Part shown: positions 1-57,690 of the stretch, one piece after another
Layout: each line of letters opens with the position of its first letter
How positions within the stretch are numbered: position 1 is the stretch's first letter
IMG/VR virus record: IMGVR_UViG_3300045974_000167
Coordinates: 1-64,000 of that record
Length of the DNA: 64,000 nucleotides
Source: a virus
Strand: one strand, 5' to 3'
The notes under the pieces: generated by a model
The model's database searches: none
Told to the model about the DNA's origin: nothing
What the model saw: only the letters and a program-made list of their open reading frames with translations
Translations under genes and position numbers: made by a program

Positions 1-37
1 CGCCGCATCTCTAGCCGCCTCTCATTCCCTCAACTTA

Positions 38-3000: not shown

Positions 3001-6000
3001 GGAGGCCAGGACTGAATTTGATATCAATGTCGCCAAGAAGGCCGAGGAACTAGACGCCGCATCGCGTAAAACCATCGAGGATTTCCTACGCCAGTTCGGA
3101 AAGGCAGAAACCTCCCAGGCCACTACTAAGACCACCCGGCTTCAGGTAGACGCGAAGATTGCTGAGTTCGAGAAGTTACTCTCCGAACGTGCCGCGAAGA
3201 TCAAGGCGGGCGACTTAGGCGCGGGCGCGGTAGATACCACCACGGCTGAATACGAGCAGTGGTTTGCGATAATGATTCAGGGCTTCAAGGACACCGATGC
3301 TGCGGCCGAAAAGCACGCTAGCGCGATGTCCCAGTTTATGATCCAGGCGCAGAGGAACATGGAAACGTTCCTCGCCTCCGAAATCTATAACGTTGTTAGC
3401 AATGAAGCTAGAGATGCGTTGAAGGAGAGGAAAGAAGCGGAGTTTGTCGCCAAGTTGAAGAAGTCCGGGGTTAAAGAGGGGACTGAGCAGTACAACCGCG
3501 CCCTCCTAGAGTGGCAGAAGAACACCAGCTCTGTTTCCCTCGCGTTTGAGAGCATGGCTGAAGCCTTCTCTAAGGCCCTTCAGAAAATGATTGCAGAGTT
3601 GGCCTCCTCTCAGATCCTTGAGGCTTTGACCAAACTCGCCAAGTTAGTAACCACCTCCATAATGAGTGGTTCTGACTCCACACCGGATACCACCGCACCA
3701 GTACCCTCCTCTATCGTCAATTCCGGTAGGGCGGCTACCGGCGGGTTAATCCGTGGGCCGGGGACTTCTACTTCCGATAGTATCCCGATGCTCCTGTCGA
3801 ATGGGGAGTTCGTAATCCAGGCTTCTGCTGTGCAGAAGTACGGCAAGGAATTTTTCGACAAGGTAAACTCTCAGGATCTATCCACGCAGGAGGATCCCGC
3901 CAAGGGCTTCTCCCGCGCCCCACGGGTTCAGCGGCGGGCAGAGGGCGGATTCATCGCGGCCCCCGGTGCAACGATTGCCGCCCCGGTAGTGGTAGAGCAG
4001 CGCCCGTCGTACACGCCGCCCTCCAAGGTAATCGCCAGCGCGGTCACCTCCTCGCTAGAGGCCATCGAACGGTACAACACCCTGTCGTTCGATAAGGTCG
4101 ATAGCTCCACCCATGATGAGTCTCTAAAGACCTTCAGGGAGAAGTACCTGACCTCGGTGAAGAAGGATTCCTCGACCGTATCGTCGGAGGATTCTTCCAA
4201 GACCGCCAAGAGCACCTACGCCCAGGATATTCTCAAGAACTACACCGAGAATGTTCTGAAGAAGTCCAAGGAGGAAGTCTCCTGGGTAGGCAGTAATACC
4301 AATACAGACAGGCGCACGGCTTCCTCCTCTACTACCTCCGATGAGAAGTCTCGTAAGGACGCCCGGGACGTTAAGGTAAGTTCTCTAGAGGAGAGTGCCC
4401 GCCGTTCGACCCGCGTTGATCTCAACGAGAACACCGCTCGCACCGAGAACACGAACTTAACGGAGGTTACCAACAAGGAAGCGCGGGAACTCCGCGAAGA
4501 GATTACCCGCAAGGACGCCCGCGAGGAGGCCCTACGTAACGTCCGCGAGAGTGCCCTACGGACCTCCCGTGACGACTCTGCTAAGACCTCGCGGGAAACC
4601 TCGTCTAAGACCTCGCACGACGATTCTCTTAAGACCTCCCGGGACGATTCGTCCAAGAAACTGCACGAGGAGATCCTGCGGGATTCCGTAGAATCGGCTG
4701 TAAAGACCTCTAAGGAAAGCGCGGAGCGGCTGTCCAAGGATGCTTCTTCTTCGGTGTCCAGCACGGAAACTCGGCGGCGCGACTCCGCTGAACAGGAGAA
4801 GAATTACCTAGAGTCCGTTCGTAGGACCGCCCAGGATACGTCCACCAAGGCTGTCAGCGAAATCTCTACCAAGAAGATCAGCGAGGATACCCTTCGTACC
4901 TCCCAGGAGAAGGCCCTGCGTGCCGCCAAGGATACGGCGGAAAAGGCTTCCTCCGAGACTATCCTGCGGCGCGTCAACGAGGAGAACCTAGTCTCGTACA
5001 CGGAACACGTTCTCCGTAAGTCCTGGGATACGTACTCCAAGCTGTCCAAGTCGGGGGCCGAAAACACCACCCTCGATAGCCTCTCTTCTACGTCTGCGGA
5101 GCAGGTGTTAAAGCAGTTCAGCAATGACCACTCCGAAAACTACGTAGAGAACGTCCTCCGGTCCTACCGTGAGGACTCTGTAAAGAACTACGGGGTTGAC
5201 TCCCTCAAGAACTACAAGGAATCCACCCTGCGGGATTACACTTTCCACGTAGTCCAGAAGTCCTGGGAGGATTACTACCGCCTTGCCAAGAATGATTCGG
5301 TGAAGAACTCCAAGGATACCTCCGTTAACTCCTTCACCGAATATGTTCTCAGCAAGGCCAGCCGGGAAGTTCTACCCGGTGCCGCCGCAGAGAATATCTC
5401 TGTCCGCGTGCCGAACGAGGGCTACGTTATCAAGCCCGAAATCGTGCGTAAGTACGGAGAGGTCTTCCTCAATAAAATCAACTCATGGTCTGCCCCGGTT
5501 CTGCAATCGATTGCAGGAACTCCGGTCAGCACCTTCCTCCGCAGGGCCGAAGGGGGGATGATTCGCGGCCCAGGAACTTCCACCTCTGATAGCATCCCCA
5601 CGCGCCTCCCTGCTGGATCTTACGTCATTAAAGCATCTACTGTTCAGAAGTACGGCGGGGAATTCCTTGAGAGGTTTAACTCCCTAGCCGCCCCTGTCGG
5701 CGTTCAGCGCCGCGCAGACGGCGGGGCGATCTTCGGGCCGGGGACGGGAACCTCTGACAGCATCCCTGCTCTGGTGTCCAACGGGGAATTCATCGTACAG
5801 GCTGCGGCGGTGCAGAAGTACGGTGTCTCGTTCTTCGACAAGTTAAATTCTCAGCAACTAGCACCCACCATTCCTGCGGTACGCAGGTTCTCCGAAGGTG
5901 GTCTCGTTAGTGGTGGCACCCGGGCTCTTTCCGGGTCTGAGGGCGGCGGCGGGGAAACCACCGTCAATGTCATCAATAACACAGGCCAGGAAACGTCCAC

Positions 6001-6145
6001 GGAGAAGATTAAGCAGCCTGACGGATCTGAAATCATCAACATCGTAATCGGTAAGGTCGCCCAGGACATCCGCAACAACGGCATGGTAGGTCAGTCCATT
6101 CAGTCCACCTTCGGGGCCTCTAGGAAGGGCGTTAATCGTGGCTAG
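38..6145 (+). CDS. Tail tape measure protein (probably begins upstream of window)
   Basis: >2000 aa, Ala-rich helical; hydrophobic segment GLWALIGGWTGVTIAAAAGLWYL; C-terminal GGxIxGPGTxTSDSIP motifs typical of TMP C-termini; followed by tail-tip genes. Confidence 0.9.
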   Translation: MFDSLKKVTGALNEQFVFTKGAADAANTKAIAEAETAAAAEAQAIARKERSLEAVALKKKEIEAEVELRNAARVSAANANKAVAAQTATPTIVASPIQGTQAPNATVAAAVQAKAALTLAEKEYAAAVAVVTEQQAFAAAMTQERIAAEKAMNGEHKNWKTNELIEAERMEGIATRNLTRDLQEQALAREALDIAKAKAASTTSMLSVAATPPPAVIASVETRAALVLAEKEYAEATNLSKIAVNELSAAEVARASALAGTLPAQQVGLAANATATEVLAAAEEDLVLAKEQSVLATIDEALAEDRLRASRLLAATTVPVTEAATAAKVAAAAAEGEYSAAVLRTNVVLSEQAVAQTEVAVATGAAKAAADAKALADARAAAAAAAAAVATTAQGKAALFAANAMKGLWALIGGWTGVTIAAAAGLWYLATRTTELEEATKNLIKARKELNDLTGDPLVLGVKTFDDEVKKQRDVLKGLEFEIAAKKAGPQKIVTSELGSEEGGATVTANVTENEIVVLEQKRDALKKIVELQEKEALVRRGISESYAKESKKLTDLGDEFSRSLKVLTDAQSAMEHISGSKDKPSVMTPKDTLQNTYAAWDIATRLYTEQLKKANGNQAELKAAVQEYTRNMASATSSYWKGIESYANIRDADRLTLGKVAIEWNKKELDQNRKVFDSLELINKKTRELGNSKLTMSAADVKYSKTIEDIETERVRRIEEINLQQLKKVPSATDPSRFTEELRYVIADPKKRAQETDDLTAALNRYAAAAAHARDEEKKKASDDAKEKLAELRAKYSPEGLATKTTGVTQVEILKVHAEIDKLTKIINENLISAGIKGTTVPWTIKLLPNTELPKIPTPIIPPPEGTFVQPAGGEITQEMLDTKHGQILAGLKTEFDTKAAANLTDKERNRLQDEYLDKLSQENEAYQQATASREAVDKIKRSTISPAANGTTYSLNDLSRFGKNDPNPPWLGQGITSEAETTQSAREARTEFDINVAKKAEELDAASRKTIEDFLRQFGKAETSQATTKTTRLQVDAKIAEFEKLLSERAAKIKAGDLGAGAVDTTTAEYEQWFAIMIQGFKDTDAAAEKHASAMSQFMIQAQRNMETFLASEIYNVVSNEARDALKERKEAEFVAKLKKSGVKEGTEQYNRALLEWQKNTSSVSLAFESMAEAFSKALQKMIAELASSQILEALTKLAKLVTTSIMSGSDSTPDTTAPVPSSIVNSGRAATGGLIRGPGTSTSDSIPMLLSNGEFVIQASAVQKYGKEFFDKVNSQDLSTQEDPAKGFSRAPRVQRRAEGGFIAAPGATIAAPVVVEQRPSYTPPSKVIASAVTSSLEAIERYNTLSFDKVDSSTHDESLKTFREKYLTSVKKDSSTVSSEDSSKTAKSTYAQDILKNYTENVLKKSKEEVSWVGSNTNTDRRTASSSTTSDEKSRKDARDVKVSSLEESARRSTRVDLNENTARTENTNLTEVTNKEARELREEITRKDAREEALRNVRESALRTSRDDSAKTSRETSSKTSHDDSLKTSRDDSSKKLHEEILRDSVESAVKTSKESAERLSKDASSSVSSTETRRRDSAEQEKNYLESVRRTAQDTSTKAVSEISTKKISEDTLRTSQEKALRAAKDTAEKASSETILRRVNEENLVSYTEHVLRKSWDTYSKLSKSGAENTTLDSLSSTSAEQVLKQFSNDHSENYVENVLRSYREDSVKNYGVDSLKNYKESTLRDYTFHVVQKSWEDYYRLAKNDSVKNSKDTSVNSFTEYVLSKASREVLPGAAAENISVRVPNEGYVIKPEIVRKYGEVFLNKINSWSAPVLQSIAGTPVSTFLRRAEGGMIRGPGTSTSDSIPTRLPAGSYVIKASTVQKYGGEFLERFNSLAAPVGVQRRADGGAIFGPGTGTSDSIPALVSNGEFIVQAAAVQKYGVSFFDKLNSQQLAPTIPAVRRFSEGGLVSGGTRALSGSEGGGGETTVNVINNTGQETSTEKIKQPDGSEIINIVIGKVAQDIRNNGMVGQSIQSTFGASRKGVNRG

Positions 6146-45642: not shown

Positions 45643-46584
45643 ATGATGGAACAAAAAGAGATGTTCCCTGCGGTAACAGGGAACAGCCCAGCGCACCACT
45701 CCCAGGTGATGAGTGCGTTCATCAAGTGCATCCGGCTACGTCGAACCGACGACGCGGTGTACTGGTTCACGCACTTCAACCACTTCTGGCCGAAGGAACA
45801 GTTCCGGCTGACCCGCCGCATCCTGATCTGTTCAGCGGAAGATTGCATCGATGTCCCGGTGCAGAAGGAGGTCGCGGCGTGGTTTATCGGGGCCATCAAT
45901 CAGAAGGATAGGACGGCGTGGTATCGTGGCGCTGTCGCCAAGATCCATCTGATTTGCGCCACACGTAACTGGTGGTGGCAACCGACCGGACGACGCTACG
46001 TCGTTCGATGGACGGAGACTGAACGAACACTGGGGCTCCTGCCGGAACTAACTAAGTCCGAGCTAGTAAAACTCCCTGTCGATTTCGATAAAGAGGGTGT
46101 AGCCCTAATTCAGCATATGCTACTCAATGCTGGATTTGAAGATTACAAGGCTAGAGGTGCATACGCTGCGATGCTTGAAGAGAGAGCGCGCACCACAGAA
46201 AATATGTCGGCGCGACTTTCTGCTGGAATCCATCGAAAGTACGCAAAGCTTCTCGGGAAGGATGAGAATTTCACGGGCCAAGCTCTGTATAAACTTGCCG
46301 GGGGAAGTCTTGGGATTAATGCTTACCCTGCAATAAAGGCAGAGGATGTCAGAGATTCCGTTCATAAGGCCCTAACGCGGTTGAAGAATCCAGAGAAGAC
46401 GCCTTCATGGACCCACGACGGAATCCATTGCTATGGTAAAGATAGGCGATTTGCAGGCGTCCTTCGCAGTATGGTTGGATGCTGTAACGCATTTAGCCAT
46501 TACGGACGCCTTGACCCCGCCGACGAATTCACTGAGGAAATGTATGAGCTCTCCAATGTCAGCTTCTCCCACAAGCTTCTTTAG
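45643..46584 (+). CDS. Stand-alone MgsA/RarA C-terminal-like domain protein
   Basis: 'SAFIKCIR....DAVYW', 'RRILICSAED'; no Walker motifs. Confidence 0.65.
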   Translation: MMEQKEMFPAVTGNSPAHHSQVMSAFIKCIRLRRTDDAVYWFTHFNHFWPKEQFRLTRRILICSAEDCIDVPVQKEVAAWFIGAINQKDRTAWYRGAVAKIHLICATRNWWWQPTGRRYVVRWTETERTLGLLPELTKSELVKLPVDFDKEGVALIQHMLLNAGFEDYKARGAYAAMLEERARTTENMSARLSAGIHRKYAKLLGKDENFTGQALYKLAGGSLGINAYPAIKAEDVRDSVHKALTRLKNPEKTPSWTHDGIHCYGKDRRFAGVLRSMVGCCNAFSHYGRLDPADEFTEEMYELSNVSFSHKLL

Positions 46585-47158
46585 GGATGATACAGAAACC
46601 CTGTACGTTGTCTCTGCCCATGAGCACGGGGCAACGTCCAAGGCCCTGTTCAGCCCAGAGGAATTGCACGATTCCCGTGTAGAACGCGCAGGGGAATTGC
46701 TCAAGATGGCGGCGGTGCAGGGGGATACTGTCCTAGATGTTGGATGCGGCTATGGCTCGCTAATTCCACACGTTCCGGCAGGTGTTAAGTATGTGGGGAT
46801 GGACCCCAATCCAGCTTTTCTCAAAAAGGCAAGCGAGGATTACCCATCTACCTTGTTTATCCACTCTGGGATTCCCCTGGCCGATAACATACCACCACCA
46901 CTCTGCGATTACGTCGTTAGTCTCGGAGTTGCGTGTCACCTCATGTCCGGTGTCGCGTCCCTTGTTTGGTACGCTCATAAGCTCCAGTTAATGGCCCGTA
47001 AGGGCATCATTATCGAGATTCAAACACCAGCGTACAACGGCTCCTTCACCAAGTTTAGCACGGAAGAGATCGTGCAGGCATTCTGCCAACGCATAAAAGC
47101 AGAGAATACACTATCCCACCCGAAGGATAGCGCCTCGACTTACCTGTTCTTCCTATGA
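46544..47158 (+). CDS. Class I SAM-dependent methyltransferase
   Basis: VLDVGCGYG, YVGMD, DYVVSLG. Confidence 0.85.
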   Translation: MSSPMSASPTSFFRDDTETLYVVSAHEHGATSKALFSPEELHDSRVERAGELLKMAAVQGDTVLDVGCGYGSLIPHVPAGVKYVGMDPNPAFLKKASEDYPSTLFIHSGIPLADNIPPPLCDYVVSLGVACHLMSGVASLVWYAHKLQLMARKGIIIEIQTPAYNGSFTKFSTEEIVQAFCQRIKAENTLSHPKDSASTYLFFL

Positions 47159-47757
47159 GCGTCCTAATCGTTAAAGCCTCACCCATCGAAAAGAAGTACA
47201 AGACAATTGCTGCCGATCCCCCGTGGGCTGAACACGGCGGCGGCAAGGTGCAGCGGGGGGCTGACCGGCACTATGACCTGATGAAAACTGCTGAGATTGC
47301 GGCGTTTGGTATGCGCGTGCAACTGATTGCAGATAAGGACGCCCACCTCTACCTTTGGGCCACGAACAACCACCTAGAGGATGCTCTATCCATCCTCCCC
47401 GCGTGGGGATTCAAGTTCGTGACAATGATTACGTGGGTCAAGGAAGGTAAACCCGGCCTGGGTCAATACTTCCGTGGACTTACTGAGCATTGCATCTTCG
47501 CCAAGCGCGGACAACCCACCTACCGCGTCGGAATCAACGGCAAGAGGGCACAAGGGCTTACTGCACTTCTAGATGAAGGTCGCGGCCTCTGGTTCAAGGC
47601 CAAACGTGGCAAGCACTCTGAGAAACCTGCCCAGTTATACACTTGGGCACGTTCCGTTAGCCACGGACCCTACCTTGAAATGTTCGCCCGTGTCGCCCGC
47701 CCAGGTTGGGATAGCTGGGGAATCGAGGCCCCCACTTCTACCAAGGTCAATCTATGA
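47155..47757 (+). CDS. MT-A70-family adenine methyltransferase
   Basis: ADPPW, LYLW, TWVK, TEH, HSEKP, LEMFAR. Confidence 0.92.
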   Translation: MSVLIVKASPIEKKYKTIAADPPWAEHGGGKVQRGADRHYDLMKTAEIAAFGMRVQLIADKDAHLYLWATNNHLEDALSILPAWGFKFVTMITWVKEGKPGLGQYFRGLTEHCIFAKRGQPTYRVGINGKRAQGLTALLDEGRGLWFKAKRGKHSEKPAQLYTWARSVSHGPYLEMFARVARPGWDSWGIEAPTSTKVNL

Positions 47758-48500
47758 ACAAGAACGAGATTTACACGGCTAATCAACCACTCTGTCTGGG
47801 TGGGCAGATTTATATGTGGAACCGGTATGCCAACGTTGGGCATATGGTTCACATGCCGGATGCCCAATTCACCAAGGGCGGGCACATGAGCCGTATCGAT
47901 TTCCTGGCCCCGGACGGGAAAGTGCAGCCAATGATCTTTCCCCTCAAGGACCGGTTCCTGACCCCCGTGAACGAGTGCCTACTGCACGAACAGGATAAGA
48001 CTTTCAGGAAATTCTTTGGGACTATCCGTGCTCTGTACGCCAAGTTCTACTATTTCAAGACCTACGAAGAAAAGCTGTATAGCCTTATCGAAGTATTAGA
48101 CGGAACCTTGTTTTCCAAGCCAGTCAACCTAGCCACGTTGAATTCCTATCTCTGGAATTGGGTAGCGGAAGAAGTCGGTATCCGCAACGGCATCGAGCAG
48201 CATTACACCACCAAGCTAGGATTCGTGCGGCCCGATGACCCCTCCGAATGGGTGGCGATGATGGGCGCTGCAATCGGTTGCAAGCTCTACCTCGGCGGCG
48301 GCACGGCAGCCAACGCCTACTTGAAGAAGGAACATTTCTCCAATAGGGGTATGGACTTCATCTCCCAGGACTATAAGATGAAGCCATACCGTAGGACTAA
48401 GAGTCACATCAACGATAACGCTATGGTGTCAATCTTAGATCCTCTATTCATTGGGGGACCGAACCTTGTCCAAGAACTTGTTGGAGTACCGGCTTGGTAG
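47754..48500 (+). CDS. WbqC-like protein
   Basis: N-terminal QP, 'DAQFTK', 'YLGG..A..YL', 'SILD.LF..GP'. Confidence 0.75.
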   Translation: MNKNEIYTANQPLCLGGQIYMWNRYANVGHMVHMPDAQFTKGGHMSRIDFLAPDGKVQPMIFPLKDRFLTPVNECLLHEQDKTFRKFFGTIRALYAKFYYFKTYEEKLYSLIEVLDGTLFSKPVNLATLNSYLWNWVAEEVGIRNGIEQHYTTKLGFVRPDDPSEWVAMMGAAIGCKLYLGGGTAANAYLKKEHFSNRGMDFISQDYKMKPYRRTKSHINDNAMVSILDPLFIGGPNLVQELVGVPAW

Positions 48501-48729
48501 TTTCTTTGAACGATTCTGGTGCATTGTTTTCGGCCAACATCGCTACACAGAGAAAGCGCAGACATTCCCGGGCCGTAGGAAGACTTGGATTGGTCAAGAT
48601 AACTACGTAGTTGACCCGGGGTTTATCGCTTCTTGGGAACAGTGTATTTACTGCGGAAAGCAGATTAACAAATCCTTCAGAGAGATAGAGTCGATTAACG
48701 ACCCCTCTTACGAGCCCCCTAGACTATGA
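48451..48729 (+). CDS. Hypothetical Zn-binding protein
   Basis: C...GQH...CIYCG. Confidence 0.5.
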   Translation: MGDRTLSKNLLEYRLGSFFERFWCIVFGQHRYTEKAQTFPGRRKTWIGQDNYVVDPGFIASWEQCIYCGKQINKSFREIESINDPSYEPPRL

Positions 48730-48971
48730 CCAAGAGACATTTTCTAGAAGCCGCGATGCGTAGGGGGTACGCTCGCGTATACGTCTACGGTGAAACTTTG
48801 CCTAGACTGCTTTCATGGGACTTGGGTATGCCCGTGGAATTGAATAGTATGGGTATCAAGATGACCGTGATTCAAAACGACCTTCCAACTGAGATCGAGA
48901 TCCCGTGGGACTCTATCTCTTCCATGGTAGCTCAGGATAGCGAGAGGTACCCGGAGGATCTCAATGAGTAG
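48726..48971 (+). CDS. Hypothetical protein
   Basis: ATGA-coupled. Confidence 0.6.
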   Translation: MTKRHFLEAAMRRGYARVYVYGETLPRLLSWDLGMPVELNSMGIKMTVIQNDLPTEIEIPWDSISSMVAQDSERYPEDLNE

Positions 48972-49161
48972 CCTGATGGACTACCTCGACGCCCACGCTA
49001 ATTTAGTGTATCTGCTACTCGGGCTGTGGTTATTAGCTTTCTTTGCCATGTGGTCGTTGGGGACATACCGGAAGCGCCGTAGGAGCCATCGGCATATCCT
49101 GCCGGGTCACACAAACGCTGTAGAGAAGACCGACGAAATCTGGTTGGATAAACTCAAATAG
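48964..49161 (+). CDS. Small membrane protein
   Basis: Single TM plus basic stretch; GGAGG RBS. Confidence 0.65.
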   Translation: MSSLMDYLDAHANLVYLLLGLWLLAFFAMWSLGTYRKRRRSHRHILPGHTNAVEKTDEIWLDKLK

Positions 49162-49169
49162 GGGGCGTA

Positions 49170-49415
49170 ATGTTTGTGAAGCGGAAGTTTGAACTAGCTT
49201 GGATTGAGGGAAACCCTGAAACGGGTCTGACGGTGGCGCGGAGGGAGTTTATCCTTGCTGGCGAAACCTTACAGATTAAGACGGAGGGCGGGATAGTTAC
49301 CCTTGTGGTAACTTCTATCGGCGGGGATAAGCCCGTTGATGATAAAAAGGTGATGCAAATCGTCACAGATCACATCATTGCCACCGACCCAAGCCCCTCC
49401 CCAAGCAAGCATTAG
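49170..49415 (+). CDS. Hypothetical protein
   Basis: RBS, gene string. Confidence 0.6.
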   Translation: MFVKRKFELAWIEGNPETGLTVARREFILAGETLQIKTEGGIVTLVVTSIGGDKPVDDKKVMQIVTDHIIATDPSPSPSKH

Positions 49416-49441
49416 AATCTAACCACAAGATAACATTAGAG

Positions 49442-49478
49442 AAACCCACAGGGACTTCGACCCTTGTGGGTTTTTTTA
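49442..49478 (+). terminator. Intrinsic terminator
   Basis: AAACCCACAGGG/CCCTTGTGGG stem + T7. Confidence 0.85.
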
Positions 49479-49544
49479 TGTTTGGACTTGAAGCCAACGG
49501 TAAATACCATGTATATTCGAGGGCCTGGAGGAATCATTCTACCT

Positions 49545-49823
49545 ATGGACAATTTTAGCGCACCACCTCCGAAGCCTGGCGACGGACTGAGCACCGTCTA
49601 CCGAATCGGCGGCAAGCACCCCGGATTCAAGAAGTGTCGCCATTGCGGCGTAGCCGGATACGTTACAGAGCCGACTATTACGAAGGCACTCCGTAAGGGT
49701 CTAGAAGACGCCAAGTTTCAGATCGTTAGTGTTGCAAAGAAAGGTGAGCGTGAGGGTACTTTCAACGTCATGCTCCGTCCGCTGATGAACATGCTTAGGT
49801 CGAAAGGAATGGTTGTTCGCTAA
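49545..49823 (+). CDS. Hypothetical protein
   Basis: GGAGGA RBS; CRHCG. Confidence 0.6.
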   Translation: MDNFSAPPPKPGDGLSTVYRIGGKHPGFKKCRHCGVAGYVTEPTITKALRKGLEDAKFQIVSVAKKGEREGTFNVMLRPLMNMLRSKGMVVR

Positions 49824-50035
49824 TGGGATTCGCTACGTGCGGTAAAAGACTGCGGGCCGAATTAATCAAGCGCGGAGTCTCGGAGGCTACGTTCTCTTGG
49901 ACTTCTGGAATTCCCCAAGGGGTTAAATCTGTCGAGAACACCCCTGAAGTTAGGAAATATCTCCAGAATTTTAACATCAAGATCGATGATGTCGGCTGCG
50001 TCTGCCACGACAGCGGGGTCTGCGATTACAAATGA
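49823..50035 (+). CDS. Hypothetical protein
   Basis: TAATG-coupled. Confidence 0.55.
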   Translation: MGFATCGKRLRAELIKRGVSEATFSWTSGIPQGVKSVENTPEVRKYLQNFNIKIDDVGCVCHDSGVCDYK

Positions 50036-50075
50036 ACGCTGGTCAATGGTTCACTCCTAGTTTTATAATCTGACC

Positions 50076-50612
50076 ATGCCTTACGCCGACCCGGTAAAAC
50101 GTAGAGAAGCGAATCGTCTTTGGGCGCGTAAATACCGCGAAAACAATAGAGAACTTGTTAATGCTGCGGCCAAAGAATACTACCACTCCAACCCCGCTTA
50201 TCGTGCCAGGGCCATACAACTAGCAACCGCTAGGCAAGAATCTAACCCAGAAGCTAAACGCGCCAGCGGCCAACGCTATTATCAGAATCATAAAGTAACA
50301 CTTCGTAGTTACTACAAATCATGGACAAATACTCCTGATGGAAGACGTATTCGTAGGGAACTAGAACAACGTAGACACGCATTAAAAACCGGTGCTCCCG
50401 GTGAGTTTACCAAGGAACAGTGGTTACAAAGAAAAAGCCTTTGGGGTGGAAAATGTTGGCTAAACTTGAATGGGTGCGCGTCCGTGGCAGGCTCTATTGA
50501 CCATGTAATACCGCTTTCTAAGGGTGGAACCAATTGGCCCGCTAACTTGCGACCGGCTTGCCGAAGTTGCAATAGCAAGAAGAATGCACAGGATTGGCGG
50601 AAATATGTCTAA
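50076..50612 (+). CDS. HNH endonuclease (freestanding)
   Basis: DHVIPLSKGG.N...NL..AC.SCN..K; TATAAT 6 nt before ATG. Confidence 0.88.
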   Translation: MPYADPVKRREANRLWARKYRENNRELVNAAAKEYYHSNPAYRARAIQLATARQESNPEAKRASGQRYYQNHKVTLRSYYKSWTNTPDGRRIRRELEQRRHALKTGAPGEFTKEQWLQRKSLWGGKCWLNLNGCASVAGSIDHVIPLSKGGTNWPANLRPACRSCNSKKNAQDWRKYV

Positions 50613-52092
50613 CAGATTCCTAGTGGTTCCAACCATCGGACTCTGGAAATCACTCGCCACCGATAGCTCGTTCGTCTTTATGATGAACACAGTTCGGAGG
50701 CTCATAGCACGAGGTAACTATGCCTACGTCGTCCTCCCCCGTGACATCGACATGGAGAACGTGCCCAAGATTCCAGGGGTCATGTACTTTGTATGCGACG
50801 TACCTGCGAGGGCGCTCGACACGCAGATGGGAATCGTGGATCAAGCATTCATTTCAAACACCTTCGGGTTCCAGTACGGAAAGTACGTGGTTGACGCTGG
50901 GATTGTTCTGCACGGCTCTCAGGTACTACCACTCAAGGCCGCCGTCCATCCTAGAGGGCCTTTTGACTGTTTTCCTGTCTTTTGTCTTGAGCAGGGTGTT
51001 AGTTGGATTGATACTGCTCCTGGGTACGAGCCTGGAAGATATGATGAAGAACTGATGATCCTGGGGGCCTCGTATTCCTACCTCTGCTGCGTATCCAAAA
51101 AAGACCTAGGGAGTTCTCTAGAAAAGGCCCGCCACTTCAACCTTAGCCATCAACAGTTCAACATTCTTAGGGAAAATGCCTTCGCGGGTGCGGCCCCTGT
51201 AGACGTACCCCTTATGCAATCGATTGCAGCGGAGACCAAGAAGAACGACACCACCACCCTGCTCTACGCCGCCAGAACAAACAAGACCAAACACCCTGAA
51301 GATATCGTCGAAATCTTCGATGCCCTATACAAACAGAATGAGCCCATCAACATTACTTACGTCACTCAGACTTCACCTCTCAAGTTTGATGTCATCACTA
51401 AGAGGCGTCATCTCTTTGATGAGCGTGGATATATTGAGCCCCGTACGAGTTGCGGCCCGATGGATTTCTACAAAGAAGCCGCCAAATCCCACGTTTACCT
51501 CTGCTGGTCGGATAGCGAGAGCTTCAATGCCTCTGCTGTTGAGGCTTCTCTTCTGGGTTGCGTGTATATGTGTCACGACACTAAGCCTCATCGTGATCTA
51601 TATGATGGTGATCTGGGTGGGGACGTATTTTGGCTCCGCGACAAGGTGGACGCCATAGAGAAAGTGCGCTGGGTCATCCACCACTACGAAGAAGCTTACA
51701 AGATGCAGGCTCCCCTGCGGCAGAAATTCCTCGACCGCCAGATCGAAGGCGACCTCTCCAAGCACATCCATGAGAAAACCATCGAGTTTCATCGAGCTAA
51801 CGTCAAAGGGACGCCCGGTAAGCTTTATTACTATAAGCTTGCGGAAAGTGCAGAACTTACGAAAATTATCGATGGTTGTCTGTCGAATTGGGCAGATGAA
51901 ACTATCGGCCTTGAGGATGTTCTTGTTTCCTTAGAATCCCACGGCGACGCCTTCTCGACAGACAACCTATATCGAGCCATTTCACGAGTGATGCCGGTGA
52001 ACTGGAACTTGCATCAAATGATGAAGCTGCACTATAACCTCCTCGACACCTGCGACAGCCGGTACCCCCGGTATAGGATCAAGAATGACTGA
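50605..52092 (+). CDS. GT-B glycosyltransferase (GT4-like)
   Basis: C-terminal 'S.SESFNASAVEA..LG' (E-x7-E); 'YAAR.NKTK' donor-binding motif. Confidence 0.75.
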   Translation: MSNRFLVVPTIGLWKSLATDSSFVFMMNTVRRLIARGNYAYVVLPRDIDMENVPKIPGVMYFVCDVPARALDTQMGIVDQAFISNTFGFQYGKYVVDAGIVLHGSQVLPLKAAVHPRGPFDCFPVFCLEQGVSWIDTAPGYEPGRYDEELMILGASYSYLCCVSKKDLGSSLEKARHFNLSHQQFNILRENAFAGAAPVDVPLMQSIAAETKKNDTTTLLYAARTNKTKHPEDIVEIFDALYKQNEPINITYVTQTSPLKFDVITKRRHLFDERGYIEPRTSCGPMDFYKEAAKSHVYLCWSDSESFNASAVEASLLGCVYMCHDTKPHRDLYDGDLGGDVFWLRDKVDAIEKVRWVIHHYEEAYKMQAPLRQKFLDRQIEGDLSKHIHEKTIEFHRANVKGTPGKLYYYKLAESAELTKIIDGCLSNWADETIGLEDVLVSLESHGDAFSTDNLYRAISRVMPVNWNLHQMMKLHYNLLDTCDSRYPRYRIKND

Positions 52093-52816
52093 GCCTCTGA
52101 ACAAAGAGAATGTGATGCGGGTGCCCATCGATTCCATCGAGCCGAACGATTGGAATCCTAACCAGATGCCCTCCCACCTGTTCAACGAGCTATCCCACGA
52201 CATCGAAGAGGAGGGGATGGATCAGCCGGTAGTCGTGATTGAACGCGACGGCAAACGCATCATCGTTGACGGCGAGCACCGTTACAGGGCCTCCAAAGCT
52301 GCCGGAAGAACGGACATCCTGATCTCTGTCCGCGACTACTCGGACGACGAGGCGAAAATCCGGACAGTACGTAGAAACATGATTCACGGCACGACTGACC
52401 CCGCCAAGTTCACGAAACTCGTCATGGACTTGAACAATCGCGGCCTGCCTATCGATGAGATTAAGCGGCGCATGGCTACCCCTGACAAGGAATTTATGAA
52501 GATGTACCAGGGGAACACCGCCGACAAATCCAAGAAAGCAGCCGAAGTCATTGCTGATGCTGAGAAGGGGGTTGCCCAGACCTTCCTCGTCGTCAACTTG
52601 TCCCAGATGATCAGGGATATCGTTGCCAAGTTCGGGGAAACCATCCAGCAGGGGTTCATCGCCTTCTCCTACAAGGGACAGACTCACATGCTGATTTCGA
52701 TGGACCCCAAACTCCACAAGGCTATGGTTGCCTTCAAATCGGCGGCGGAAGAGGATAAACTGACTCAGGAACAAATCTCTGAGCGTCTAGCTAATGCTCT
52801 GATGAAGGCGTCGTAA
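52085..52816 (+). CDS. ParB/Srx-domain protein
   Basis: 'PNDWNPN', 'QPVVV', 'IVDGEHRY'. Confidence 0.88.
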   Translation: MTEPLNKENVMRVPIDSIEPNDWNPNQMPSHLFNELSHDIEEEGMDQPVVVIERDGKRIIVDGEHRYRASKAAGRTDILISVRDYSDDEAKIRTVRRNMIHGTTDPAKFTKLVMDLNNRGLPIDEIKRRMATPDKEFMKMYQGNTADKSKKAAEVIADAEKGVAQTFLVVNLSQMIRDIVAKFGETIQQGFIAFSYKGQTHMLISMDPKLHKAMVAFKSAAEEDKLTQEQISERLANALMKAS

Positions 52817-53562
52817 TGACCGTCAAGTTCAACTCCCCATTCACCCCCAAGGTGATGCCAAAGATTGAGGATCTTCCCGGTGCCAAACCGGTTGACCTCA
52901 AGAAGCATAAGCGTACTGCCTCAGGGGAACTGCGGCGCGAACCCGCTGCGACCTCGGAACGTCAGAAGGCTAAGGTAGAGGTCGAGGTAGCTGTTGAACG
53001 TGCGATTAAGACTGGCGAAATCGTCGTGCGGGAGAAGGGTGCAATCGTTGACACGACTGACCCTGAGCTTAGAGAACACTTTGGTCGTATGTTGTTCATG
53101 GGGGCTACCCAAGACCTCATCTGCGAAGTCCTAAAGATCCAGCGGGACACCTACCGCCGACTCAAGCGGCTGCACCTTGAATCCGTCGTAGAATCCCTTG
53201 CCGAAACCGGCGTGATGGGGATGGTTGCCCTCTCCTTCGACAAGATGGAGATGGCGTCTACCAAAACCCTGCAACTCATCAACTCCCTTGGGGTATCGGA
53301 GAAGGACCGCGCCGACCTCATTGGTGCTGTCCGACTCTTAAAGGATATCGAAAACGATAAGGTGTCGATGCTCGTCAAGACGGGGGCAATCAAGGTGAAG
53401 AAGCGGGCCGAAATCTCCGCGCACCTTGAAGTTCTCTCCGGTAGCTCTCAGCCGCTCCTAACCGGTGAAAAGGCGCAGCAGGTTATGGTCAGGGTAATGG
53501 CCGACCTCGTTGATGCTATCGAGGACGACGATGAATCTGACGGCGGCGAAGAGAGCGATTAG
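52816..53562 (+). CDS. Probable terminase small subunit
   Basis: HTH-like 'GATQDLICEVLKI' plus helical body, directly upstream of TerL. Confidence 0.6.
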   Translation: MTVKFNSPFTPKVMPKIEDLPGAKPVDLKKHKRTASGELRREPAATSERQKAKVEVEVAVERAIKTGEIVVREKGAIVDTTDPELREHFGRMLFMGATQDLICEVLKIQRDTYRRLKRLHLESVVESLAETGVMGMVALSFDKMEMASTKTLQLINSLGVSEKDRADLIGAVRLLKDIENDKVSMLVKTGAIKVKKRAEISAHLEVLSGSSQPLLTGEKAQQVMVRVMADLVDAIEDDDESDGGEESD

Positions 53563-55351
53563 AGATGTAGCGCCGGAATACCGGCGTCACATGATGCTGT
53601 GCATCGAGGATGCGCTGCGGGGAGACAACCGCGCCCTCTCGAAGTACAAGCACATGCCCGTGGACGTTCGTACGTTCATCGAGGCTGATTATTACATGCA
53701 GTCTGTGACCGCTACCGGGCAGAAAATCATCTACCCGGAAGTGATGAAGCATCTCGTAGAAATCAATGAAGGTGACTACGACGAGGTTGTGCTAACAGGG
53801 GGCATCGGTGCTGCAAAATCCACTATTGGCGTCTATACTCAGGCGTATCAGCTCTACTTACTTAGTTGTATGGCTGATCCTCAAGGTTACTTCGGCCTCG
53901 ATCCCTCTTCCGAGATTGTCATCGTCTTCCAATCTCTTTCCAAGACGTTAGCGGAAGAGGTTGACTATGACCGGTTCCGGTCGATGGTGGAACGTACTCA
54001 ATACTTCCAAGAGAAGTTCCCCCACAACAAATTCGTTGAGAACCAACTAGAGTTCCCGAACCGCATCATCGTAAAACCAATCTCTGGTTTAGAGACAGGC
54101 GCAATCAGCCAAAACGTCATCGGGGGGATGATCGATGAAGTTAACTTCATGGCCGTTGTGGAAAAGTCTAAGATGGCGGATGGCGGTACTTACGACCAAG
54201 CGACTGCTCTTTACAATTCGATTGCACGCCGCCGTAAGTCGCGCTTCCTCAAAGCTGGGCGAATGCCTGGGCGACTTTGCTTGGTATCTTCTCGTCGTAC
54301 TCCCGGTCAGTTTACGGATAAGAAAGAGGAAGAGGCTAAGTCCAACCCCAAGATTTACGTATATGACAAGCGTGTCTGGGAGATTAAGCCCCCCGGAACC
54401 TTCTCCAACGAAAGATTCCATATTTTTATCGGGGACGGAGCCCGACAGCCCCGGGTAATTGCGGACGGGGAGATTATCTCAGAAGATGATCGGCACCTTA
54501 TCGATGCCATCCCCATCGAGTTCAGGGCAGACTTCACCGATGACATCACCAAAGCCCTGCGTGATATTGCCGGTAAGAGCACGCTTGCCATACATCCGTT
54601 CATGCCTCGGCGGGAGGATGTGGCTGCTAACTTCGGGCGTCGTCCTAGCGTCTTCACGGTAGAGGTTTTCAACCAGCAGGGATTGAAACTTAGGATTCGG
54701 GATAACCTAGTTATTCGTAATCCTGATTGCCCCCGCTGGGTTCACATCGACTTAGGTATTAGCAGCGACTCGGCGGGCCTCGTTATTGCTCACGTTCCTA
54801 AGTTCATGGAGATGAAAAGAGGGGAGGGTACAGAATACCTCCCCGTGATAGAGGTAGATGGTGCCTTAGAGATTCCCCCTCCTCCGGGTAAGCGTGGGGA
54901 GATCGATTTCGCGGGCATCCGCCGAATCCTCTACAAGCTCCGGGACATGGGAATGCAGATCAAGTGGGTCAGTCTTGACTCGTTCCAATCCACCGACACG
55001 ATGCAGATCCTTAGAAGGAACGGGTTTATCGTAGGCTATCAATCGATAGATACGACTAACGTGCCGTATGATTTAACGAAACAAGCCCTGTACGACCATC
55101 GGGTCATTGCCCCAGCCCATGAGAAACTGGTAAAAGAATTAGTGTCTCTAGAACGAGACTTTAGGCGTGGGAAGGTAGACCACCCAGCCAAGGGGTCCAA
55201 GGATATCGCGGACTCGCTAGCTGGGGTTATTTTTGGCCTGAGTATGAGGCGTGATGTCTGGGCTCAACACCGTATTCCGCTATCCCAGGCAGTTTCAATC
55301 GCGTCCCATATCAATGACCATGAAGACTCAAGGAGTATCCCCCGTGAATAG
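53531..55351 (+). CDS. terL: Terminase large subunit
   Basis: GGIGAAKS Walker A, GMIDE Walker B, SS motif III, HIDLG / D / KD.AD RNase H residues. Confidence 0.9.
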   Translation: MNLTAAKRAIRDVAPEYRRHMMLCIEDALRGDNRALSKYKHMPVDVRTFIEADYYMQSVTATGQKIIYPEVMKHLVEINEGDYDEVVLTGGIGAAKSTIGVYTQAYQLYLLSCMADPQGYFGLDPSSEIVIVFQSLSKTLAEEVDYDRFRSMVERTQYFQEKFPHNKFVENQLEFPNRIIVKPISGLETGAISQNVIGGMIDEVNFMAVVEKSKMADGGTYDQATALYNSIARRRKSRFLKAGRMPGRLCLVSSRRTPGQFTDKKEEEAKSNPKIYVYDKRVWEIKPPGTFSNERFHIFIGDGARQPRVIADGEIISEDDRHLIDAIPIEFRADFTDDITKALRDIAGKSTLAIHPFMPRREDVAANFGRRPSVFTVEVFNQQGLKLRIRDNLVIRNPDCPRWVHIDLGISSDSAGLVIAHVPKFMEMKRGEGTEYLPVIEVDGALEIPPPPGKRGEIDFAGIRRILYKLRDMGMQIKWVSLDSFQSTDTMQILRRNGFIVGYQSIDTTNVPYDLTKQALYDHRVIAPAHEKLVKELVSLERDFRRGKVDHPAKGSKDIADSLAGVIFGLSMRRDVWAQHRIPLSQAVSIASHINDHEDSRSIPRE

Positions 55352-55994
55352 TGGGAATAATTGTTTAGGGCGAACTGTTCTAGTCATTGGGGCACATCCC
55401 GACGATTTGGAAATGAATGCCGGTGGGACAATCCATAAACTAATCCAATCTGGAGCAGTGGTATCCACTACAGTTTTAGCTAGCCATACCACCTTCAATG
55501 GTGATAGATTACTCGAATCAAACCGCGCCCAAATCAAATTGGGTATCGTCGGGATGGAGTTTGCTGGAGGGATTGACACTAAATTAGCTGATTCTAAGGC
55601 CATGTTAATTGATCTTCTTGATAGTAAGATAAAGATCATCAAACCGGATACAGTCATCACCCATTTTCACGCTGATACGCATCAAGATCATGCCGCCTGC
55701 TACGATATCGTAATGGCGGCAGCGCGTTGTGTACCAAACATCCTGCTGTTCAAGCCGACGTTTCCATCAGGCAGACCCGACATCCCGTTTCACCCTAACT
55801 TCATCAGCAAGCTCTCCGACGAGAATATGATCGCTAAGATTTCTGCCATGAGCGAGTTCGTATCTCAGCGTAATAAATACGGAGAGGATAAGTGGCTTGA
55901 ATCCCTTAAGTCTACTGCGGCGGGCGATGCTTGGACGTATGGTGGCTTCCACGGGTATGCGGAAATCTTTCAAGTCTCACGTTTAATGGGGTAG
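55344..55994 (+). CDS. PIG-L/LmbE-family N-acetylglucosaminyl deacetylase
   Basis: AHPDD and HQDH motifs; AGGAG RBS; overlaps terL stop. Confidence 0.9.
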   Translation: MNSGNNCLGRTVLVIGAHPDDLEMNAGGTIHKLIQSGAVVSTTVLASHTTFNGDRLLESNRAQIKLGIVGMEFAGGIDTKLADSKAMLIDLLDSKIKIIKPDTVITHFHADTHQDHAACYDIVMAAARCVPNILLFKPTFPSGRPDIPFHPNFISKLSDENMIAKISAMSEFVSQRNKYGEDKWLESLKSTAAGDAWTYGGFHGYAEIFQVSRLMG

Positions 55995-56003
55995 TGCAAT
56001 CAA

Positions 56004-56468
56004 TTGCACGGAGGGCGTGTGGGAGTAACCTTAAGAACACAAAAATCTGAACGTCCGGTTGAGAGCCTGACGTTAGATGAAGCGATTGCTGAAAGGCAAC
56101 GCTTAGTTAAAACTACGATGGACGCGCAGGATGAACTCAGCGACCGAAATCGTATCGGAACCGATGGAAAAAGGATCTCTGCCCACGACTACTGGGCGTG
56201 GCACCGTACTGTATCGAAGGTAGTCCGCGACAATCAACACCGCATGGGTTTACTGCGTGAACACATCAGAAAGATGCGGCAGCGTTCGTCTGTCGCAGAG
56301 GCCAAGGTTGAGGACGTAACTGATCGGGGCCTACTCAAATCAGCATACGAACTGCTCTGCACGCTTGCTAGAGAAGATGTTGATTTTGATGCTCACGAAC
56401 AGGCTCTCATGGACGTTATCCGAGAACGCATCCAGGGAACCTCACCAGTTAATGGAGGTCGTAAATGA
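56004..56468 (+). CDS. Hypothetical coiled-coil protein (start may be GTG 56019)
   Basis: Gene string. Confidence 0.65.
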   Translation: MHGGRVGVTLRTQKSERPVESLTLDEAIAERQRLVKTTMDAQDELSDRNRIGTDGKRISAHDYWAWHRTVSKVVRDNQHRMGLLREHIRKMRQRSSVAEAKVEDVTDRGLLKSAYELLCTLAREDVDFDAHEQALMDVIRERIQGTSPVNGGRK

Positions 56469-57169
56469 TTTTCGTGCTTGAGGGGTTGGATGGGTGTGGC
56501 AAGGGGACACAAGCCGAAATTCTAATCAAGAGTCTGCTGAAAACAGATCCGACAACCGGACTAGTAAAGTTTCCCGACTACACGACGCCCATCGGGAGAC
56601 TGTTGCAGGATTGGATGCACGGAATGATCGGGGTCTGTGCAACCGACGAAGCACCCATCGTTCCCCTTCCCGGCCAGAGCGCACTCGCCCTACAGGCTAT
56701 TCTCCTAGCAAACAAGACGGAGCAGGCCGACCTCTTGTGGGGTTATAAAACCATCGGAAACCTCGTAGTAGACCGGTACTGGCAGTCGGGCGTTGCCTAC
56801 GGTGCGGGCGTTGATGGTTTGGACTACGATTACATGGTCCGAATCAATAGAGGACTACCCGCCGCCGATATCAACTTCCTTATCAATATCCCTGTCTCAG
56901 TAGCTTTAGAACGTCAGGCTTTACGCGGCCGTAAGGATATCTACGAAGGCCGTCGTGATGCGCGTGATGCGATGGAGCGGTGCAACACCGCGTACGTCCA
57001 GTTGTGGGCTAGAATGGCAAATCGTGATCCCACTGCTTGGGTAGTAGTTGATGGAACTCGTCCCCGTGATGAAGTGGCAGCCATGATTCTCGCGGAAGTA
57101 ATGGCGTTCAAACAAGCACGAGATCCTAGCTGGCTGGCCGACGACTCTCATCCAGTTAGTGCGATTTGA
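56465..57169 (+). CDS. tmk: Thymidylate (dNMP) kinase
   Basis: EGLDGCGKGTQ, FP.Y, DRY..S..AY. Confidence 0.92.
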   Translation: MIFVLEGLDGCGKGTQAEILIKSLLKTDPTTGLVKFPDYTTPIGRLLQDWMHGMIGVCATDEAPIVPLPGQSALALQAILLANKTEQADLLWGYKTIGNLVVDRYWQSGVAYGAGVDGLDYDYMVRINRGLPAADINFLINIPVSVALERQALRGRKDIYEGRRDARDAMERCNTAYVQLWARMANRDPTAWVVVDGTRPRDEVAAMILAEVMAFKQARDPSWLADDSHPVSAI

Positions 57170-57187
57170 CCAAGCACGAGATCCTAG
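57113..57187. repeat. 17-bp direct repeat CAAGCACGAGATCCTAG
   Basis: Exact copies at 57113-57129 and 57171-57187. Confidence 0.9.
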
Positions 57188-57213
57188 ACATCTAGCTAGC
57201 AAGGACACGAGAC

Positions 57214-57690
57214 ATGGCTATCCACGGACTAGCAGCGAGACCCTCCCCCACCCCCATCCGGGATCCCGTAGTAGTAGAGAGACTGCCTAGTACGGAGAAG
57301 GACATCAAGTCTCCCTTCCGCGCAACTCCTGGCTCCGCTGGCCTAGATTGGTCCCTTCCTAGGGACGTTTCCATCTGGCCCGGACAGACCTTGGTTATTC
57401 CCTCAGGATTCAAGATCGAGATCCCGCATGGACTCGTCGGCCTGATGCGTACGAGGTCATCCTCACGTAAGCGAGGGCTGTCCGTGGATGGCACCATCGA
57501 TAGCGATTACCGTGGCGAGGTAGGAATCAGCCTAAGAAATCTTACGACTGAGCCTATCTGTGTTAAGCGAGGAGAAAGAATCGCCCAGATGGTAATCGTA
57601 GATGCCCACCTATATATCAATGTAATCGAGGGGCATGTTAATATGAACACCGTCCGAGGCGAGGGCGGCTTCGGCTCGACGGGGGTATAA
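57214..57690 (+). CDS. dut: Trimeric dUTPase
   Basis: SAGLD, RSS, GTIDSDYRGE, RIAQ, RGEGGFGSTG. Confidence 0.95.
   Translation: MAIHGLAARPSPTPIRDPVVVERLPSTEKDIKSPFRATPGSAGLDWSLPRDVSIWPGQTLVIPSGFKIEIPHGLVGLMRTRSSSRKRGLSVDGTIDSDYRGEVGISLRNLTTEPICVKRGERIAQMVIVDAHLYINVIEGHVNMNTVRGEGGFGSTGV

Follow-up and report, generated by a model that had tools for sequence, protein, structure and literature searches.

The first 64 kb of the 83,559-bp IMG/VR viral contig IMGVR_UViG_3300045974_000167 (CheckV completeness 87%), which are the whole stretch of DNA analysed here and are called the window below, contain a conserved accessory gene cassette that surrounds the packaging genes ParB-TerS-TerL. It consists of genes for an MgsA_C/SWIM-like protein, a class-I S-adenosylmethionine (SAM) methyltransferase, a WbqC-family protein, a ~500-amino-acid (aa) GT4 glycosyltransferase (GT) and a PIG-L deacetylase. 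We propose tentatively, and with slightly less than even confidence, that this is a mobile accessory glyco-cassette in a clade of 80-100-kb siphophages, that its chemistry is like that of the BshABC and MshABC pathways, and that it acts on phage DNA.

The composition of the cassette was determined from a survey of 80 IMG/VR loci that encode relatives of the window's TerL, taken with 10-kb flanks, plus phages DLP5, V-YDF132 and RcZahn; their open reading frames (ORFs) were searched with iterated hidden Markov models, each seeded from one window protein. (A single TerL protein used as query retrieved 1 locus from IMG/VR, a TerL alignment retrieved the 80 and a GT alignment retrieved none; megablast of the region against phages gave no match.) A homologous ~500-aa GT is encoded directly upstream of ParB in about 23 survey loci and PIG-L is found in 17. 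When near-identical loci were collapsed there were 37 lineages with at least 8 kb upstream of TerL; the GT is present in 11 and PIG-L in 11 of these, both occur together in 10 (Fisher p 3e-7), and WbqC is present in six, each time with the GT and PIG-L (p 2e-4), where the p-values are indicative only because the 37 lineages are related and not fully independent. Five of the six WbqC lineages also hold the methyltransferase and five hold the MgsA_C-like protein. With that same proviso on independence, these statistics rule out a chance juxtaposition of the cassette genes, and the co-occurrence of GT, PIG-L, WbqC and methyltransferase genes in related phages, on which the original prediction (a short note made from this DNA alone) had staked its pathway, is borne out. 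The full five-gene set is present in the window, in survey loci L009, L038, L043 (a complete 85-kb genome) and L029 and in V-YDF132, and L057 carries all of it except the MgsA_C-like gene. The gene order is identical in the window, L009, L038, L043 and V-YDF132, and in the first four of these PIG-L comes last, directly after TerL. In the carriers L009, L038, L043 and V-YDF132 the TerL proteins are ~50% identical to that of the window and the GTs just 13-27% identical; the closest GT (53% identity) is encoded by a 92-kb relative contig that also carries WbqC and MgsA_C-like homologues (P0002, P0008 and P0026).

All of the genes named in the original prediction are present at the positions it gave, all on the + strand, and they do form an overlapping, coupled string in which neighbouring genes share 1-8 nt, or ~30-50 nt at two junctions. 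The first cassette gene encodes the basic MgsA_C-like protein (45643-46584; 313 aa, pI 9.1) and is followed by the methyltransferase gene (46544-47158, its start being uncertain among 46433, 46544 and 46556), the WbqC gene (47754-48500), the GT gene at the core of the cassette (50605-52092) and the PIG-L gene (55344-55994), whose start overlaps the end of TerL by 8 nt.

The 50605-52092 product is, judging by its motifs and modelled fold, a GT4 GT-B enzyme, predicted to be of the retaining type. Its Pfam match to Glycos_transf_1 (E 5.7e-4) is below threshold, the glutamates of its EX7E motif (E305 and E313) are invariant in the alignment of homologues, and its AlphaFold2 (AF2) model (predicted local distance difference test score, pLDDT, 73) matches PglA, MshA, BshA and PimA in Foldseek at E values of about 1e-10. 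At its C-terminus it has about 100 additional aa that are conserved. The PIG-L protein (Pfam PIG-L PF02585, 1.7e-17) belongs to the PIG-L/LmbE family of zinc de-N-acetylases, and its AHPDD and HxDH motifs (metal and catalytic) are intact. The methyltransferase matches Pfam Methyltransf_12/23/25/11 (E 3.5e-7) and contains the motif VLDVGCGYG; among proteins of solved structure it comes nearest to small-molecule and sugar N- or O-methyltransferases, and this nearest set includes no DNA methyltransferase.

The WbqC protein matches Pfam WbqC (PF08889; 8.5e-21, 75.2 bits with a cut-off of 21.3), as do 13 of 13 metagenomic homologues. In O-antigen gene clusters (E. coli O121 and Shigella dysenteriae 7) WbqC is associated with an N-acetylglycyl-amino sugar and has been proposed to add the amino acid; to our knowledge the biochemistry of the family is uncharacterised. 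An AF2 model of the window protein made with an alignment of 19 homologues (pLDDT 93) has as its best Foldseek match in the PDB the bacillithiol enzyme BshC (4wbd, E 1.4e-3, probability 1.0). Comparison with structure representatives by VIA-align likewise placed BshC first (Z 13.9, root-mean-square deviation 3.3 Å over 226 of 248 residues), followed by class-I lysyl-tRNA synthetase (LysRS, Z 11.5) and then by GluRS, TyrRS, ArgRS, CysRS and MshC at Z values of 7-8 (MshC 7.1). Sequence-profile searches of the PDB did not retrieve BshC, and fold comparison alone showed the relationship. WbqC, at 248 aa, is about half the size of BshC (540 aa), and we infer from the model that it is a minimal BshC-like, class-I aminoacyl-tRNA synthetase (aaRS)-like Rossmann (HUP) domain, predicted to be an ATP-dependent ligase that adds an amino acid to an amino sugar. 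The role proposed for O-antigen WbqC, a member of the same PF08889 family, fits such a fold, although its setting differs in being cellular and in involving nucleotide- or lipid-linked sugars and a surface polysaccharide. Whatever the target of the phage protein, the PF08889 family can now be read as minimal BshC-like/class-I-aaRS-like ligases, which is a testable function.

As to the MgsA_C-like protein, the window copy has no Pfam match, its PDB profile matches to the RarA/MgsA C-domain are weak (E 0.24 and 0.95), and MgsA_C is found on 11% of the members of its nearest Atlas cluster. The alignment nevertheless contains an MgsA_C-type motif, the homologues have a CxC..CxH motif, and several of them carry an N-terminal SWIM zinc finger (PF04434). 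The proteins are basic (pI 7.6-9.1), and the family is a stand-alone one: a search of 1.84 billion representatives matched ~430, and the best 150 of these include no fused form.

In the synthesis of bacillithiol and mycothiol, BshC and MshC catalyse the third step; the two before it are carried out by a GT4 N-acetylglucosamine (GlcNAc) transferase (BshA or MshA) and then by a deacetylase of the PIG-L family (BshB or MshB). The enzymatic logic of the cassette, as read from sequences and models, probably matches these steps: both have the same three-step logic and the same folds, namely those of a GT4 GT, a PIG-L/LmbE deacetylase and, in the case of WbqC, a putative class-I-aaRS-like ligase. The phage trio differs in being encoded among packaging genes and in its accompanying methyltransferase and MgsA_C/SWIM-like protein, in the size of WbqC and its lack of a sequence-level match to BshC, and in the ~100-aa C-terminal extra on its GT, and nothing in the cassette points to a thiol product. 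The chemistry suggested in the original prediction (GlcNAc transfer, de-N-acetylation, aminoacylation and methylation) is strengthened by the WbqC-BshC and GT-MshA/BshA fold relationships and by the small-molecule type of the methyltransferase. Whatever is modified, phages appear to have acquired a complete module, GT4 enzyme, PIG-L and ligase, from the biosynthesis of low-molecular-weight thiols.

From the folds, catalytic motifs, co-occurrence and placement observed we infer a donor, an order of steps, an amino acid addition and an acceptor as follows: The retaining GT4 enzyme would put an N-acetylhexosamine, most likely GlcNAc from uridine diphosphate (UDP)-GlcNAc, on the acceptor, the PIG-L zinc deacetylase would free the 2-amino group of the sugar, WbqC would ligate an amino acid to the freed amine, and the class-I methyltransferase would methylate the sugar or the aminoacyl group, with the basic MgsA_C/SWIM-like protein perhaps acting as a targeting or DNA-binding factor. 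The acceptor would most likely be the DNA of the phage itself, which would be modified once replicated but not yet packaged, yielding a cationic aminoacyl-glucosaminyl base. Could the product of the trio instead be a soluble small molecule, either an aminoacyl-glucosaminide akin to bacillithiol or mycothiol or something like an aminoglycoside, that the phage uses in host takeover, redox control or counter-defence? The closest characterised relatives of all three core enzymes are small-molecule pathway enzymes (BshA/MshA, BshB/MshB and BshC/MshC) and the methyltransferase is of the same sort, but the half-size WbqC, the conserved C-terminal extra on the GT and the co-inheritance of an MgsA_C/SWIM-type protein all speak against a soluble product. 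So does the fact that relatives swap very different sugar-tailoring sets, which is typical of arms-race glycans on macromolecules and not of one defined metabolite, and we give this alternative only a slim chance.

The extent of that swapping is seen in the genes with which relatives fill the same slot. DLP5, L058 and L063 have PIG-L, a short-chain dehydrogenase/reductase (SDR), a DegT aminotransferase, a methyltransferase and a GT there; L025 has two SDRs, a GT, a second GT and a UDP-glucose dehydrogenase (UGDH); and L035 has a Polysacc_synt_2 dehydratase. Because the sugar genes differ in this way, the slot around the packaging genes is a hypervariable glyco-island. The Delepquintavirus phages DLP5 and DLP3 belong to the same TerL clade as the window (52-53% identity) and share with it the GT-ParB-TerS-TerL synteny and an upstream PIG-L and methyltransferase, but they have a WcaG-type SDR and a WecE aminotransferase in place of WbqC and the MgsA_C-like protein, and their 96-kb genomes encode PolA, a PPDK-like protein and tyrosine phosphatases, none of which was seen in this contig. 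(The PPDK-like protein and one or two tyrosine-phosphatase-like proteins are encoded downstream of TerL in V-YDF132, RcZahn and DLP3.) The cassette itself is available in culture in Vibrio phages V-YDF132, PG28 (vB_VpS_PG28) and VH2_2019, the variant island in DLP3 and DLP5 and the enzyme trio in Ralstonia phage RP13, so the question of the target is testable in cultured carriers.

Is DNA that target? We regard it as the single most likely one, with a chance that comes close to even. The cassette lies between recombination genes and the terminase, and in all carriers it is in the replication/packaging module. This placement bears on the idea that these genes are morons which, to exclude superinfection or bring about lysogenic conversion, remodel glycans of the host surface (lipopolysaccharide, O-antigen or capsule). 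In its favour, O-antigen clusters typically contain WbqC, DegT, SDR and GT4 genes, and DLP5 is a temperate phage; the authors of the DLP5 and DLP3 reports list PIG-L, WecE and the methyltransferase as membrane-modification morons (PMC5834331; PMC7326821). The cassette, however, overlaps and is translationally coupled with ParB-TerS-TerL and so is not an independent moron, it is present in the lytic phage V-YDF132 (PMC9413028), and no flippase, polymerase, Gtr-type or undecaprenyl-linked component was found among the ORFs scanned; a role in host-surface remodelling therefore seems to us very improbable.

Several observations weigh against DNA as the acceptor. The original prediction noted that no enzyme that could make an acceptor base is visible in the window, and this still holds after the rest of the contig and complete carriers were searched: ThyA (PF00303) is absent from the contig and from the complete cassette-bearing genomes G001, G002, G003 and G005, Tet_JBP (PF12851) was not found in the contig or the carriers searched (the positive control for this search was weak), C5-methyltransferase (PF00145) was not found, and TGT/DpdA (PF01702) is absent from G000, G001, G002, G003 and V-YDF132 in a search whose control matched 14 of 14 genomes. 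The contig is 87% complete, and G003, which is complete and has the same cassette, likewise lacks ThyA, Tet_JBP, C5-methyltransferase and TGT. In G006, which has a GT and PIG-L downstream of TerL, a full-length ThyA is present. The GTs are also mostly acidic (pI about 6), the nearest solved relatives of the window GT use small molecules or lipid-linked sugars, and the assembly came from an ordinary pond metagenome. Prediction of a GT-ParB complex gave a score of 0.00 and, having been run without controls, counts neither for nor against binding.

The ThyX-like ORF of DLP5 was considered as an acceptor maker and rejected, since ThyX occurs in 12 of 26 records with no association with the GT, and ThyX-like genes are absent here. 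This divergent ORF of ~300 aa, distinct from the canonical ThyX of other relatives, lies directly after TerL in DLP5 (DLP05_110, L002:13812-14705), the slot that PIG-L fills in the window; only the C-terminal two thirds of the Thy1 profile are matched (E 1e-6 to 1e-12), and similar ORFs are present in G001, G014, G017 and G018. DLP3_141 is annotated as a thymidylate synthase; Pfam searches for ThyA and ThyX at the corresponding place in its close relative DLP5 were empty, and the contig has no homologue of DLP3_141.

The lack of an acceptor-making enzyme in the contig and the complete carriers searched is also a point in favour of another idea, namely that late in infection the cassette enzymes attach sugars to capsid, tail or packaged proteins of the phage, with amino-sugar tailoring then diversifying the virion surface. 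Virion glycosylation has been described for mycobacteriophages. The cassette is co-transcribed with the late packaging genes, its acidic GT has no obvious DNA-binding character, avoidance of palindromes (below) implies DNA that is exposed to restriction, and three additional small GT-A paralogues are encoded just upstream of the missing head module. On the other side, the cassette is always in the replication/packaging module and distant from structural genes, the RP13 trio is among helicase genes, conservation of the cassette does not extend to the three GT-A genes, and the DNA of relatives with the variant island is refractory to enzymes that have sites in it (PMC7326821). We think protein glycosylation unlikely, and modification of DNA remains the reading that we prefer.

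The GT-A genes are an observation in their own right: three tandem GT2-like genes (phrog_1574) occupy L001:15561-17480 (contig 79,561-81,480), before the truncated end of the contig. They are found in this genome only, among 26 related genomes, and were rejected as cassette members because they are not conserved with it; they may provide a second, separate glycosylation function.

If DNA is the acceptor, what could be modified in a phage in which no enzyme for a precursor base was found? It is possible, although we consider it doubtful, that the GT4 enzyme glycosylates DNA without a hydroxymethyl- or hydroxy-pyrimidine precursor, through a canonical base or the backbone, that de-N-acetylation, aminoacylation and methylation follow, and that the SWIM/MgsA_C-like protein is the DNA-targeting subunit. 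The product of such a precursor-free route would be a cationic aminoacyl-glucosaminyl nucleotide, and DNA hypermodification of that class has yet to be described. We know of no description of de-N-acetylation or aminoacylation of a DNA-linked sugar. A DNA target would make this the first such sugar known to be modified in both ways, and without known acceptor-forming enzymes; it would broaden natural DNA-modification chemistry and supply new enzymes for DNA labelling.

In phage T4, alpha- and beta-GTs act on 5-hydroxymethylcytosine. Metagenomic mining has found phage GTs adjoining ParB and terminase genes and clusters of a GT with 5mYOX or a ThyA homologue (bioRxiv 10.1101/2023.12.21.572611), and arabinosyl-5-hydroxycytosine is present in RB69 and Acinetobacter phage DLP3; phages with arabinosylated DNA encode nucleotide-sugar enzymes (PMC13326640), as do the islands of relatives here (SDR, DegT, UGDH and Polysacc_synt_2), which is a point in favour of DNA. 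The cassette has in common with such clusters a GT and nucleotide-sugar tailoring genes in a DNA-metabolism neighbourhood and a diversity of glycans among relatives. It differs in that those clusters include a ThyA homologue, TET/5mYOX or a C5-methyltransferase, none of which was found here, and in that its GT is GT4/BshA-like. ParB-dependent thymine dioxygenases are known in phages (PMC13229309), and they too have a ParB-like gene beside a DNA-modifying enzyme, but no dioxygenase was found here and the ParB gene of this clade is independent of the GT.

Evidence in favour of DNA comes from Ralstonia phage RP13, which has the best cultured-phage match of the window PIG-L (40% identity). There the PIG-L gene sits two genes away from one of the WbqC family (Pfam 3.4e-29), with a GT1-type GT close by; the trio falls within 4.5 kb, inside a replication block, with helicase and exonuclease genes around it. 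The phage is a member of the SP-15/YerA41/Carin-5 group, in which thymidine is hypermodified with oligosaccharides, and its modified bases hindered sequencing (PMC12686479). The group is unrelated to the present clade: its members are myoviruses of 150-220 kb that encode a ThyA homologue and a special PolA. Homologues of the MgsA_C-like protein and the methyltransferase are lacking in RP13, its GT is a different one, and the role of its trio is only putative. The neighbourhood of another PIG-L homologue, in Acinetobacter phage vB_AbaM_3098, contains hypothetical proteins only.

Restriction data for the two relatives with the variant island also point to DNA: only 4 of 36 enzymes cut DLP5 DNA (PMC5834331) and 0 of 15 cut DLP3 DNA (PMC7326821). 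No paper that identifies such a modification in this clade was found in the literature. Inspection of the DLP3 genome (MT110073.1) showed, as a further point against a modified DNA, that 10 of the 15 enzymes that fail on it have zero sites, and 25 of the 64 6-bp palindromes are absent. Most of the published DLP3 "resistance" is site avoidance, and only the failures of SmaI, ClaI, EcoRI and NdeI (68, 18, 7 and 4 sites, respectively) are informative; because so many of the enzymes have no sites, the evidence for DLP3 modification is thinner than published. Only C and G are common to the sites of all four informative enzymes.

The contig studied here (the window plus L001) shows the same avoidance, to an extreme yet selective degree: of the 64 6-bp palindromes 18 never occur although 10-26 copies apiece would be expected, among them CTGCAG, GGGCCC, CGCGCG, GTCGAC, CTCGAG and AGATCT, and the overall observed/expected ratio (O/E) is 0.51; GAATTC, GGATCC and CCCGGG occur at normal frequency and GATC has an O/E of 0.62. 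The whole TerL clade avoids 6-bp palindromes (mean O/E about 0.6), and, again unfavourably for DNA as the target, it does so equally in cassette-bearing and cassette-free loci (p 0.4-0.5). Avoidance that is not relaxed in carriers is not what a broadly protective DNA modification predicts, and the suggestion that the cassette provides anti-restriction armour is weakened by it.

Other members of the string are not part of the pathway, including some that the original prediction had drawn into it. The MT-A70-family DNA N6-adenine methyltransferase (47155-47757; Pfam MT-A70 1.5e-22, phrog_359 1e-49, DPPW motif), which had been counted among the pathway enzymes, has no homologue in any of 84 related loci and is an insertion in this genome. 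The HNH endonuclease (50076-50612; Pfam HNH 4.6e-10) was rejected as a cassette member on the same ground, being unique to this genome among those loci. The Tmk (56465-57169) and dUTPase (57214-57690) genes, assigned by Pfam, follow PIG-L together with a 154-aa ORF of no assigned function (the three span 56004-57690). Tmk and dUTPase serve ordinary nucleotide metabolism and are not linked to the cassette, both genes being kept in the cassette-free L006, the closest TerL relative (63% identity). Six small ORFs of 65-119 aa between the cassette halves (48451-50035, + strand) have no Pfam match and are not conserved with the cassette; two have homologues, only in L006. The 44104 protein was also considered and rejected, since it is conserved with or without the cassette, and its Atlas matches are uncharacterised phage clusters only.

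ParB had been taken as a marker of base-modifying loci, a meaning it does not have here: it lies directly upstream of TerS-TerL in 53 loci whether the GT is present or not, and ParB-TerS-TerL is the packaging backbone of the clade. The protein with the ParB/Srx-fold N-terminal domain (52085-52816; Pfam ParB_N PF02195, 3.6e-13, 49.8 bits) has DGEHR/GGHHR, a GxxR-type motif, in the alignment of its homologues. The putative TerS (52816-53562) is named by position only; it has no Pfam match, belongs to the function-less PHROG phrog_25054, and is syntenic with the ORF between ParB and TerL in relatives. TerL (53510-55351), which likewise has no Pfam match, is matched by 352 phage records; across more than 90% of the protein it shows 50-53% identity to the annotated TerL proteins of Stenotrophomonas phages DLP5, DLP3 and Summit, Rhodobacter phage RcZahn and Vibrio phages including V-YDF132.

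The phage itself is a siphophage, with genes for tape-measure, J-like tail and fibre proteins. Along the window these genes precede those for DnaB, primase, helicase, RecA and RuvC, after which comes the cassette/terminase region. The head module and PolA were not found in the contig with the DLP3 portal, capsid and PolA proteins as queries. The original prediction remarked that no portal or capsid gene stands beside the terminase; the whole clade shares this arrangement, DLP3 having its portal as gene 1 and its TerL as gene 106, and the present contig moreover lacks the head module altogether. A 5'-open tape-measure ORF at window 2-6145 would be in frame with a 3'-open ORF at L001:18643-19557 if the contig were circular; the lack of portal, capsid and PolA genes makes truncation inside or near the tape-measure gene more likely than circularity.

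Finally, a 14-bp palindrome, TGCAATCGATTGCA, is present in 26 copies (with at most two mismatches) between window positions 2765 and 62423, where 0.21 are expected, and again at L001:3523-3536. The copies are often intragenic, for example in the GT gene at 51215 and the WbqC gene at 48269, and the palindrome is nearly absent from 84 related loci (2 copies, both in L057). It is a candidate site at which the ParB-like protein, or some other factor of the phage, could bind.

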